Of a stretch of DNA of 29,600 nt, positions 11,383 through 25,098 are shown in pieces. Under the pieces are notes generated by a model, which worked only from the letters and a program-made list of their open reading frames with translations, did no database searches and was not told where the DNA came from. Numbering within the stretch: the stretch's first letter is position 1; each line of letters starts with the position of its first letter. Position numbers and translations under genes: made by a program. Origin of the DNA: a virus (lineage: Duplodnaviria > Caudoviricetes); the IMG/VR virus record IMGVR_UViG_3300017913_000395, positions 1-29,600 of that record. One strand, written 5' to 3'.

Positions 11383-12459
11383 TTATTCACCGAGGTTATA
11401 GTTAGCTGTAACCAGGGCTTCTGGACGCAGAATCTTTGTGCCGTACATATGCAAGCCACGTACGATGTCAGCAAATGAATCTGGGTCACGGTATGTTTCT
11501 GTCTTGTTGATCTGCTGTGCAGTAGCTGCAGCAGAATCATGACCAGCAACAATCACACCGAAGTTAGTTTCAGAACCTGAAGCAGCAACTGTGCCTGGGC
11601 CTGTACCAACTGTTGGCAGGTTGTTTGAAACGTAGATGCGGAAGCCACGCAGCATACCAGACATACGTCCGTTACGCAGCATATCACCTGCATCCTGAGC
11701 ACCAGCGAAGTCGTTGTTGATCAGCTTTGAACCTGAGTTCATCAGCTTTTCAACGAAGACTGGGTCTACTACCAGCCAACGACCATCTGTAGGTACGTTG
11801 CCTGAATCCAGCAGACGCTTCATGCGGTTTACCAGTTCCAGTGGGTCAGTCTTACCTGATGCACCTGAACCAGTTGTCAGCGGGATTGATGTTACTTCTG
11901 ATGCAACACCCAGGTCTGAACCACCGAAGTCGGTGATGTCCAGCTTGTTAGCTGCCAGGAGTTCATCTGAACCTGCTGAGCTGTCGGCCTTTGTGCCGCG
12001 CACTGTTGTGCTACGTGCGTTTGAGCCGTCAAAACCACACAGGTACTGCAGTACGTCTGTGTCGTAGCTGTCACGGATTTTGTAAGCTGCACGGTCTGTT
12101 GCCAGTTCCATGAAGTTTACGTGTGTGATAGCGTCTTCCAGGTCATCCAGCTTGAATGAGAAGTAGTTCGCCATGTCAATGATCATGGTGAAGTCTGCAT
12201 CAGTCAGAGCCTGTTGTGAAATGTCTGTACCACGGGTATAGGCATTCACTGTGATGTCTGGTTCTTTGATGATCCGTACTGAATCACCAATGTTTGAGAT
12301 TTCGCCGAAGTAGTCATTGTTAGTAATGTCTTCGACAACTGAGGTCTTGCGGAATGCTACCTGTGCCTTCTTGCTGAAAATGATTGGCGAGAAGTTTGCA
12401 TTGGTAAACTGACCCGTAAGACCAGAGGTGGTGGAGGCAATTTTTGTACCTGCTGCCAT
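11383..12459 (-). CDS. Major capsid protein
   Basis: Start moved to ATG 12459 (GGGAG RBS). GDSVRI, VPTDGRWLVVDP, G...GF.IYVSNNLP, F.DIVRGLHMYG.K.LRPEAL motifs of HK97-fold podovirus capsids. Confidence 0.92.
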   Translation of the reverse strand: MAAGTKIASTTSGLTGQFTNANFSPIIFSKKAQVAFRKTSVVEDITNNDYFGEISNIGDSVRIIKEPDITVNAYTRGTDISQQALTDADFTMIIDMANYFSFKLDDLEDAITHVNFMELATDRAAYKIRDSYDTDVLQYLCGFDGSNARSTTVRGTKADSSAGSDELLAANKLDITDFGGSDLGVASEVTSIPLTTGSGASGKTDPLELVNRMKRLLDSGNVPTDGRWLVVDPVFVEKLMNSGSKLINNDFAGAQDAGDMLRNGRMSGMLRGFRIYVSNNLPTVGTGPGTVAASGSETNFGVIVAGHDSAAATAQQINKTETYRDPDSFADIVRGLHMYGTKILRPEALVTANYNLGE

Positions 12460-12690
12460 TTTAGTCTCCCTAGAAGGATTAGTTACACGAAAGGGCAGCG
12501 CAACCGTTGCACTGTCCTGCAAGAATTTCCCATCATGTTCAGAGGTCTGTGTTAGTCAGGTTACCTTTGCGCTAGGGGCTGACCTTATCAGAGTGTTCTA
12601 AAGTAGTCGGGCTTCTTAGTGATTTTCATGAAAATCCGTAGCCACTGATGTGGGGGGAAAGTAGGGGCATATAAAACGCCCCTAAGTTAT
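12460..12690 (-). ncRNA. Structured 5' leader of the capsid gene (candidate cis-regulatory RNA)
   Basis: About 230 nt between promoter and start, with several stems; three contain an NNAC/CC internal loop. Confidence 0.55.
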
Positions 12691-12695
12691 GTATA

Positions 12696-12724
12696 GTTAT
12701 ATACCATACATATATGTTTGTCAA
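12696..12724 (-). promoter_or_regulatory. Sigma70-type promoter for the capsid gene
   Basis: TTGACA-17 nt-TATAAC on the minus strand. Confidence 0.8.
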
Positions 12725-12733
12725 TAGTATTTT

Positions 12734-13609
12734 TTAACTACCTGACACATCGTAGATAAATCTGCCTTCTTCCATAGCCAGGGCAATCTCGTCACTCAGT
12801 TTTTCGTACTGACGTGCGGACATTGCAGCTACTTCAGATTCGCGGATTGTACCTTTTTCTTTTGGTACTTGCGTATTAGAACGTACAGACACATCACGTG
12901 CAGCATCCTCTGCTGCTGGACGGCCTTTCTTTTTACCGCTCTTAGTCAAGCCCATATCTGCTTTGTACAAATCTATAGCACGGGCTGCAGACTTTGCATC
13001 GTTGTCGTTTTCGTACAATGCTTGCTGTACCCAGCGTGGCTGCAGCTCTGCCCAGTCATGAAATGCATCATCGTCTCTGATGTTCTCAAAGTCTGGGTGG
13101 ATTGCCAGAAGTTCAGCTTCTGCTTTATCGCGCTTCGCTTCTGTCTGCAGCTCATCAATCTGCTTCATTCGTTCTTCCAGATGAGACTGCTGCTCTTTTG
13201 CTTTCTTCGCTGCAATCGTTTCTACGATAGCTGCTACATCTGGATATTCTTTTGCCCACTCATCAATCTCTGCTTCAGACTTAGGAAGCTGCATTGACTG
13301 CTTGGACACTTCAGATAGCTGCTGTTTCAGCTCTTCTATCTGTTTATCAAACTCTGCTTTTTGCTTTTGAGAATGTCTACGAAGATCACCGTAACGCTTT
13401 TTGAAGGTTCTTTCTTCAGCCGTCAGGTTCGCATCGTGCTCTTGAATAGCTTGCTCTGCCTGTTCGTGCTCTGAATCAGCCTCTTCATTAATTTGCGCTT
13501 CAAGCTCTTGTATTTCTCTTTCATCATCCTCAATGCTTTTCGGATTGCGATACATCATAGGACGTATCTTTACTTTCTTTTCTTCTTTGATTGCGATTGG
13601 CTCTGCCAT
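12734..13609 (-). CDS. Capsid scaffolding protein
   Basis: Immediately upstream of the capsid gene; acidic coiled coil with FKKRYGDLRRH, HPDF..I...F..W and AIDLYK motifs; C-terminal I..AM.EGR. Confidence 0.8.
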   Translation of the reverse strand: MAEPIAIKEEKKVKIRPMMYRNPKSIEDDEREIQELEAQINEEADSEHEQAEQAIQEHDANLTAEERTFKKRYGDLRRHSQKQKAEFDKQIEELKQQLSEVSKQSMQLPKSEAEIDEWAKEYPDVAAIVETIAAKKAKEQQSHLEERMKQIDELQTEAKRDKAEAELLAIHPDFENIRDDDAFHDWAELQPRWVQQALYENDNDAKSAARAIDLYKADMGLTKSGKKKGRPAAEDAARDVSVRSNTQVPKEKGTIRESEVAAMSARQYEKLSDEIALAMEEGRFIYDVSGS

Positions 13610-13621
13610 TCGTCACTCCAT

Positions 13622-13667
13622 TAATTGGGGCTACCGTAGCCTGTGCAGGGGGATAGGTTGCCAATTA
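13622..13667 (-). promoter_or_regulatory. Hairpin with two NNAC/CC internal loops just upstream of the scaffold RBS
   Basis: TAATTGG[CAAC]CTATC[CC]CCTG-CA-CAGG[CTAC]GGTAG[CC]CCAATTA followed by ATGGAG RBS. Confidence 0.65.
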
Positions 13668-24982: not shown

Positions 24983-25011
24983 GAAGCTGTTACATAGTTT
25001 CCTCCCCAACT

Positions 25012-25045
25012 GGGTCAGTAGCGTAAGCTACTGGCCCTTTTTTTT
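25012..25045 (+). terminator. Rho-independent terminator
   Basis: GGGTCAGTAGC-GTAA-GCTACTGGCCC-T8. Confidence 0.9.
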
Positions 25046-25098
25046 GGCCTAAAGGCCAAGAGGGTTGTGAATACAAATGCACTGGAAGGGGATAAGTT

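Follow-up and report, generated by a model that had tools for sequence, protein, structure and literature searches.

A Conserved RNA Internal Loop in the Scaffold and Capsid Leaders of HMO-2011-Type Podophages and Its Candidate Protein Partner

The leaders of the probable scaffold gene and of the major capsid gene in an HMO-2011-type podophage contain copies of one small RNA internal loop, and comparison with related phages demonstrates that this loop is a conserved, covarying, and uncatalogued RNA motif. What is new here is a candidate binding partner, namely a basic helix of the scaffold together with its residue 77. From the sequence comparisons presented below, it is probable that the scaffold binds the loops through the helix KRYxDL-R77, that free scaffold represses its own translation, and that procapsid assembly relieves this repression.

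The Late Region and Its Five Loops

The window, which is the whole stretch of 29,600 nucleotides that was analyzed, corresponds to the late region of a podophage of the HMO-2011 type. Its minus strand carries the terminase and portal genes, a small gene, genes encoding proteins of 593 aa and 291 aa, and the gene for the major capsid protein. The major capsid protein (358 aa; 11383..12459, minus strand) belongs to PHROG 267 (E 8e-64) and is 57% identical to the coat protein of HMO-2011. The 291-aa protein (12734..13609, minus strand), encoded directly before the capsid gene, is 58% identical to gp48 of HMO-2011 and has relatives in Roseobacter CRP phages, pelagiphages, and phages of Rhizobium, Aeromonas, and Pseudoalteromonas. 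Vibrio phage CHOED was found via its capsid protein.

The 291-aa protein is a member of PHROG 13678, whose function is unknown. Its structure model (pLDDT 75) consists of long helices, a small helical bundle, and a C-terminal helix-turn-helix. Foldseek gave weak matches of this model to entries named scaffolding protein, and the Atlas lead is Phage-scaffold, found on 13% of the cluster members. On the basis of its position, the long-helix model, the weak fold matches, and the Atlas lead, the protein is probably the capsid scaffolding protein, and it is called the scaffold below. No scaffold-named match was obtained from the family libraries, and the Pfam family Phage-scaffold did not match any of 13 members of the 291-aa family. 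Searches of Pfam, PDB sequences, and PDB folds with the scaffold returned coiled-coil noise only, with no PDB relative at an E value below 0.03 and no Foldseek match in the PDB at E 0.001.

A sigma-70-like promoter for the capsid gene, TTGACA-17-TATAAC, is recognized from the sequence at 12696..12724 (minus strand); it escaped the consensus scan because its -10 box ends in C. Directly 3' of the capsid gene is a strong intrinsic terminator (11376-11349, minus strand). Elsewhere in the window, positions 24985-25051 (plus strand), located 3' of a 301-aa ORF, carry a UUCCUCCCC tract and a terminator, and give a weak suhB/mmgR-like Rfam match (27.5 bits versus a gathering score of 41). Some related loci have additional genes in this region. 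Extra ORFs are found 3' of the scaffold gene in L034, L045, L076, and L067, with the capsid leader retained, and the gene inserted between the scaffold and capsid genes of L700 is annotated as an HNH endonuclease. The capsid gene of L069 is seemingly split by approximately 1 kb with an endonuclease-like ORF, an insert that we take to resemble a group I intron.

The first-pass annotation had described five NNAC/CC internal loops with four nucleotides opposite two (4x2) in the two leaders. All five were located on the minus (mRNA) strand at the coordinates that it gave (13667-13622, 13656-13631, 12658-12635, 12602-12538, and 12584-12554), and the local minimum-energy folds contain 5/5 of them. 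The scaffold-leader hairpin (13622..13667, minus strand), identified from sequence, fold, and shuffles, holds two 4x2 loops in opposite orientation and 5 bp apart. The outer loop is CAAC (13660-13657) opposite CC (13630-13629), and the inner loop is CC (13651-13650) opposite CUAC (13639-13636). The innermost hairpin had been drawn as CCTG-CA-CAGG, but a loop of 2 nt cannot be closed, and it is corrected here to CCU-GCAC-AGG with a loop of 4 nt. The scaffold Shine-Dalgarno sequence GGAG (13616..13619, minus strand) lies 2 nt past the hairpin and is unpaired in it.

The capsid leader is predicted to begin with a plain 9-bp hairpin at the 5' end of the mRNA (12662..12684, minus strand; fold z -3.4). 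It is followed by a hairpin with one loop, CC/CUAC (12635..12658, minus strand; from fold and shuffles), and by a nested pair of loops in opposite orientation (12538..12602, minus strand), of which the outer is ACAC/CC and the inner, at 12584-12554, is CC/UAAC. The capsid Shine-Dalgarno sequence (12466..12471, minus strand) is approximately 70 nt 3' of the last loop. Between the loops and this site, a hairpin followed by UUUCG (12517-12488, minus strand) is present in the window's own clade. Attenuation in this leader was considered and rejected, as the terminator scan does not list this hairpin and the main HMO-2011 class has no equivalent.

The two leaders together contain 5 loops versus a mean of 0.13 in dinucleotide shuffles, with five or more in 0/5000, in a test that is post hoc since the motif was defined on the same leaders. 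The same loose pattern is found 16 times on the whole minus strand of the window versus 7.7 ± 3.3 times after shuffling, and thus a single isolated match is meaningless. Independent support for the loops is provided by the leaders of relatives. The fold stability of the scaffold leader alone is ordinary (z -0.65), and that of the capsid leader is z -2.7. A covariance model of the scaffold leader scores 53.2 bits on 13622..13667, with the window among its training sequences, and its second-best match in the window is the capsid hairpin at 12635..12658 (13.1 bits, E 0.058). Small shares of the stretch are found in RNA data from four runs of one study, and one RNA contig spans 12508-12734 with one difference. 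These contigs do not show strand or start and were therefore set aside as evidence.

Related Scaffold and Capsid Leaders

The related loci were picked by protein similarity (173 loci), and 161 have a usable scaffold leader; the other 12 were left out. A parse that is blind to pairing, GG[CUAC]N5-7[CC]C...G[CUAC]N5-7[CC]CC, succeeds in 145 of the 161 leaders. The remaining 16 mostly have one loop or a variant by eye, and two of them (L107 and L146) have none. In the middle stems, 112/121 positions are paired, with 22 distinct types, versus 92.3 ± 3.2 when the arms are swapped (0/10000 swaps reached the observed value). The ratio of G-U wobbles to C-A mismatches in these stems is 63:4, an excess that identifies the element as RNA on the mRNA strand. 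In a MAFFT alignment (A2) of 87 hand-picked double-loop scaffold leaders, from which single-loop and loop-less leaders were left out, 85.3% of the cells pair versus 74.0% when shuffled and at most 50.4% when slid, and there are 105 double changes versus 42.

The consensus can also be written as a direct repeat, GGCTAC-N5/6-CCCC, that a transcription factor might bind in the DNA, and the window contains the palindrome GGCTAC-G-GTAGCC. However, the spacers covary as base pairs with the 63:4 preference of G-U over C-A, the half-site spacing varies freely in the single-loop and capsid copies, and the palindrome is not conserved. A DNA-level element is largely refuted by these observations and is very improbable.

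When IMG/VR was searched with a sequence-only pattern that has no pairing requirement, 120 matches were obtained, and 117 of these have a scaffold match directly downstream. Of the other three, two are cut short but have a scaffold-like start, and one is a repeat. At least nine R77 loci have no loop before the scaffold gene (L107, L146, L482, L622, L625, L653, L656, L687, and L692). Three of these (L107, L146, and L482) are close relatives of the window that have lost the scaffold-leader loop and retained the capsid-leader loops and R77. In the loop-less L622 and L656, a TTGCAN-18-TATAAT match is found just 5' of the Shine-Dalgarno sequence. In L016 and L056, a promoter-like TTGACN-17-TATAAT abuts the scaffold hairpin, and the transcript would start inside the outer loop strand.

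The TTGACA-like/TATAAC promoter pattern is found in 136 of 148 related loci, approximately 200 nt 5' of the capsid AUG. In 99 distinct capsid leaders, 111 4x2 loops were counted versus 17.5 expected, together with 49 loops of a 3x2 form, [CAC]/[CC], versus 3.8 expected. In a census of 1038 possible 4x2 loops that is blind to their letters, AC/CC is the top class with 77, and the next class has 28. The homologue of the window's nested capsid pair covaries in 41 related leaders (alignment A3; 41 of the 99 capsid leaders, mostly of the HMO-2011 class). The two opposite loops are nested inside a closing helix, the fold is 93.1% paired, and 10 of its 19 pairs are changed on both sides. In the main HMO-2011 class, the 5' capsid hairpin (for example in L015, L018, L040, and L081) has, in place of the internal loop, the terminal loop NNNGCUA with a covarying R-Y closing pair, which is possibly a hairpin-loop version of the same site.

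In the HTVC103P and CHOED groups, in which 17-59 nt separate the scaffold gene from the capsid gene behind it, the loops are found only before the scaffold gene. Of the 120 matches considered for the HTVC103P group, 41 without a scaffold profile match were left out, and 40 of these have a downstream frame of less than 100 aa. When the window and a 50-kb portion each of HMO-2011, HTVC103P, and CRP-738 were scanned more strictly, no further gene leader with a loop was found. The matches beyond both leaders are in coding sequence or are single strays, in scans insensitive enough that the capsid loops of HMO-2011 and CRP-738 were also missed.

No Rfam match was found over the leaders at E values up to 5 for the window and up to 1 for nine related loci, the motifs GP20-a and GP20-b included. 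The first-pass annotation had pointed out that the stem sequences differ while the loop is kept within one genome. The comparison with relatives supports a conserved, covarying motif on the mRNA strand that is common to both leaders.

The motif is found in cultured phages of SAR116, Roseobacter, SAR11, Rhizobium, Vibrio, and Aeromonas, and this spread of hosts favors a reader that is encoded by the phage. It is conceivable that the loops tune the stability or translation of the mRNA without any phage protein, either as architectural C-loop-like modules or as sites at which an ion, a metabolite, or a host protein binds. The larger conserved capsid-leader fold with its closing helix would be consistent with such a role, as would the 3x2 [CAC]/[CC] variant (49 versus 3.8), which fits the sequence signature of the C-loop. 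This explanation is nevertheless quite unlikely given hosts that span alpha- and gammaproteobacteria, stricter-scan matches outside both leaders that are coding sequence or single strays, and loop letters that shift together with a phage residue, as described below.

Scaffold Residue 77, Ribosome Sites, and the Proposed Control

The candidate RNA-binding element of the scaffold is the basic helix F69-KKRYGDL-R77-RH79 (13373..13405, minus strand) at the start of a coiled coil. Residues K71, R72, Y73, and D75 are invariant in 81/81 clusters, for scaffolds that had been selected on this motif, and R72, Y73, and D75 are also invariant in the alignments A1, A4, A5, and A6. A heptad repeat runs from the basic helix (positions 69, 73, 76, 80, 83, 87, 91, 94, and 98) and is enclosed by a predicted helix, 64-103, in the structure model.

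The letters of the loop change within the CRP-738-like group of 62 loci. The short strand of the scaffold loop is AC in 42 of these. In the same 42 loci, the first capsid hairpin has AC in 41 (one is unparsed), and the capsid outer loop has AC in 34 and CC in 5 (three are unparsed). In nine sister loci, CC is found at each of the three sites. The letters at sites approximately 1 kb apart thus change together, which points to one shared ligand. In the AC lineage, seven otherwise conserved columns of the scaffold are changed, and three of these are in the basic helix (F69Y, L76I, and R77Q). The capsid protein of this lineage has two conservative changes at conserved columns.

The comparison was widened to 468 distinct scaffold/leader pairs, with 31 of 592 loci left out for having no leader. 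With R or K at position 77, C is the first letter of the ribosome-proximal loop in 395 of 398 parsed leaders, and the three exceptions are parse errors. With Q77, this is the case in 0/39. The short strand starts with A in 0/398 for R/K77 and in 35/39 for Q77. These counts are for parsed leaders; 20 of 59 Q77 leaders and 11 of 409 R/K77 leaders are unparsed. On a tree built without the motif, the residue must change three times and so must the loop, and 3/3 independent pairs agree, for which the sign-test p value is 0.25. Of 260 columns, position 77 alone is free of errors, a ranking inflated by a Q-containing fetch pattern. This pattern supplied most of the Q77 loci that are not in the CRP-738 group, and R77 relatives with A-type loops would therefore escape there. 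Four phages that were added later all have R77 and CUAC/CC, and they test the common state only.

Several cases mark the boundaries of the correlation. Two Q77 loci (L600 and L604) are readable as having a C-first 4x1 loop, and the Aeromonas phages 1233 and MQM1 have Q77, yet CC is retained. The C-first rule is limited to the scaffold-proximal loop, as ACAC and UAAC are found in the capsid leader of the window, whose scaffold has R77. The agreement of the loop letters with residue 77 makes the scaffold a candidate for the loop-binding partner. The earlier suggestion that the scaffold possibly reads the element thus gains a covarying residue, and the reading itself keeps the rank of a candidate.

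Another phage protein, such as the capsid protein, the portal, or the product of the small post-portal gene, might read the loops instead, with the scaffold residue tracking them by shared ancestry. The genes for all three are present in the cultured phages examined, the link to the scaffold is through three lineage changes only, and the covariation screen covered the scaffold and capsid proteins. On the other hand, the CRP-738 contrast sets two conservative capsid changes against seven in the scaffold, three of them in one basic helix, and Q77 arose in separate lineages with the same loop shift. We consider a different phage reader to be decidedly unlikely.

The last scaffold loop ends 13-25 nt 5' of the AUG in 107 of 114 leaders with a loop. 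When the scaffold loop fold is forced, the opening cost of positions -17..+13 increases by 3.9 kcal/mol; it is increased in 63 of 71 scored leaders and decreased in 4, and in 36 more the loop is inside the opened interval. The same direction was obtained in an earlier soft-bonus version of this test with 45 leaders. The opening cost of -12..+13 shifts by only -0.24 kcal/mol, which leaves unsupported a Shine-Dalgarno switch in which the C tracts would pair with GGAG until the protein is bound. In the HTVC103P group, the stem extends into the Shine-Dalgarno sequence. The loop fold in the scaffold leaders costs a median of 2.2 kcal/mol over the free ensemble, and it is thus often not the dominant unbound fold. 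The capsid loops end a median of 59 nt 5' of the AUG, and forcing them changes the opening of the ribosome site by -0.2 kcal/mol on average (9 up and 25 down of 98 scored). Judged by these positions and opening costs, occlusion is a plausible mode of action for the scaffold gene; for the capsid gene, it is not evident.

In the proposed mechanism, the probable scaffolding protein would bind the loops in both leaders with its short basic helix (KRYxDL-R77), and ribosomes would thereby be kept from loading on the scaffold mRNA when free scaffold is present. Because the basic helix starts a coiled coil, a scaffold dimer may present two basic patches to the two opposite loops 5-6 bp apart. Binding would stabilize the hairpin at the edge of the 30S footprint, so that repression would occur by occlusion, with the Shine-Dalgarno sequence not hidden. 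Uptake of scaffold into procapsids would then lift the repression. The sites in the capsid leader would soak up or recruit scaffold instead of repressing. The synthesis of scaffold would thus scale with capsid mRNA, and scaffold would meet new capsid chains. If the scaffold does bind, titration or recruitment at the capsid leader is somewhat favored over direct repression, since the loops are approximately 60 nt from the start codon and have no computed coupling to it; this is the weakest step of the proposal.

The first-pass annotation had envisaged a shared operator that couples the synthesis of scaffold and capsid. In the strong form of this idea, the ligand is the same as in the mechanism above, but scaffold would be a direct repressor of both genes by binding to their leaders, and the synthesis of head proteins would stop when unassembled subunits accumulate, for example when portal is limiting. 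The joint shift of the loop letters in both leaders fits this idea. So does the distribution of the capsid loops, which accompany a separate capsid leader and are absent where the capsid gene lies 17-59 nt after the scaffold gene, as if a separate transcript needed a control of its own. The part of the idea that is supported is the motif common to both leaders. Less well supported is the same action on both genes, as the capsid loops are a median of 59 nt from the AUG, have no opening effect (-0.2 kcal/mol when forced), and are missing from phages whose capsid gene lacks a separate leader. We also infer that free scaffold would normally signal too little coat, and repression of the coat would then be counterproductive. 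Direct repression of both genes is therefore unlikely.

The titration mechanism can be extended to a bolder and rather doubtful model, in which these scaffolds would be bZIP-like regulators (a basic helix plus a coiled coil) with a one-residue code, where R/K77 specifies CUAC/CC and Q77 specifies AUAC/AC, and the capsid leader would be both a counting sponge and a docking platform. If this is true, the scaffolds of a large and abundant phage group would be sequence-specific RNA-binding regulators that read a two-fold symmetric loop pair, and the capsid leader would set the stoichiometry of scaffold to coat and start head assembly on the capsid mRNA.

Comparison with Known Systems

Among cataloged RNAs, the Rfam motifs GP20-a and GP20-b and uncatalogued viral candidate RNAs are located upstream of phage structural genes and have been proposed as cis-regulators, according to the available part of PMC10690425. 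The same part of that source describes a marine candidate, DNAVirus_5306, that precedes Phage-scaffold genes in 3/18 cases, and the one candidate located before P22-type coat genes, DNAVirus_7287, which comes from gut samples. The loops described here are likewise structured RNA directly upstream of phage structural genes but, unlike GP20-a and GP20-b, they match no Rfam model. The motif is undescribed in the literature that was found, within the available parts of these sources; it may equal one of the 8,495 unnamed IMG/VR models of PMC10690425 or be contained in the supplement of PMC5737381.

The first-pass annotation had also likened the loops to the C-loop. As far as the available text of PMC9516175 and PMC4551918 describes it, the C-loop (found in rRNA helices, the thrS operator, and viroid loop 26) is associated with protein binding and translational control, with three bases in the long strand, often beginning with C, 0-2 bases in the short strand, and two base triads built from crossing non-Watson-Crick pairs. 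The motif reported here is similarly an asymmetric internal loop within a hairpin stem. Its long strand begins with C in 395/398 of the R/K77 scaffold loops and in 0/39 of the Q77 loops, and the nested capsid loops of the window begin with A or U. In the C-loop, the first C can have A, G, or C as its trans Watson-Crick/Hoogsteen partner but never U, in the portion of PMC9516175 that was available. If the first C is assumed to be the pairing base here, the partner is an allowed one in 71/71 outer loops, and it is U in 13/71 inner loops. Unlike the C-loop, the main form here has four (sometimes five) bases in the long strand, and the loops occur as two-fold symmetric pairs. The C-loop label is thus appropriate for the 3x2 [CAC]/[CC] capsid variant, the only form with three long-strand bases, which fits cleanly, and not for the main 4x2 form, which fails the three-base rule.

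The closest parallel is with phage P22, for which autoregulation of scaffold synthesis after transcription has already been reported as a kind of control. In the work of Casjens and Adams (1985) and of Wyckoff and Casjens (1985), the P22 scaffold was reportedly repressed post-transcriptionally by free, unassembled scaffold. A more recent account (bioRxiv 10.1101/2022.12.13.520362, in its available part) describes the P22 scaffold gene as proposed to be repressed post-transcriptionally by its own product, with the N-terminal region implicated. As in P22, we propose here that the scaffold gene of a podophage is repressed after transcription by its own free product. What sets the present phages apart from P22 is that an RNA loop can be defined and covaries, that a helix and a residue are candidates for binding and for specificity, respectively, and that the loop is found again in the capsid leader. 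The 291-aa scaffold has no homology to P22 gp8 in searches of Pfam, PDB sequences, and the PDB with Foldseek. The literature search found no such loop described for the P22 scaffold gene and no defined RNA site or binding surface through which a phage scaffold senses its own excess.

Since the P22 work of 1985, it has been an open question how phage scaffolds detect their own surplus. The HMO-2011-type phages are dominant and broadly distributed in the ocean, according to the available text of PMC9038755. What they offer here is an RNA site of small size, a helix of 11 residues as the candidate binding element, and a natural swap in specificity, each of which is found in cultured phages (HMO-2011, CRP-738, CRP-235, HTVC103P, phiM6, and CHOED), and two orthogonal protein-RNA pairs of this kind would be a compact tool for translational control.
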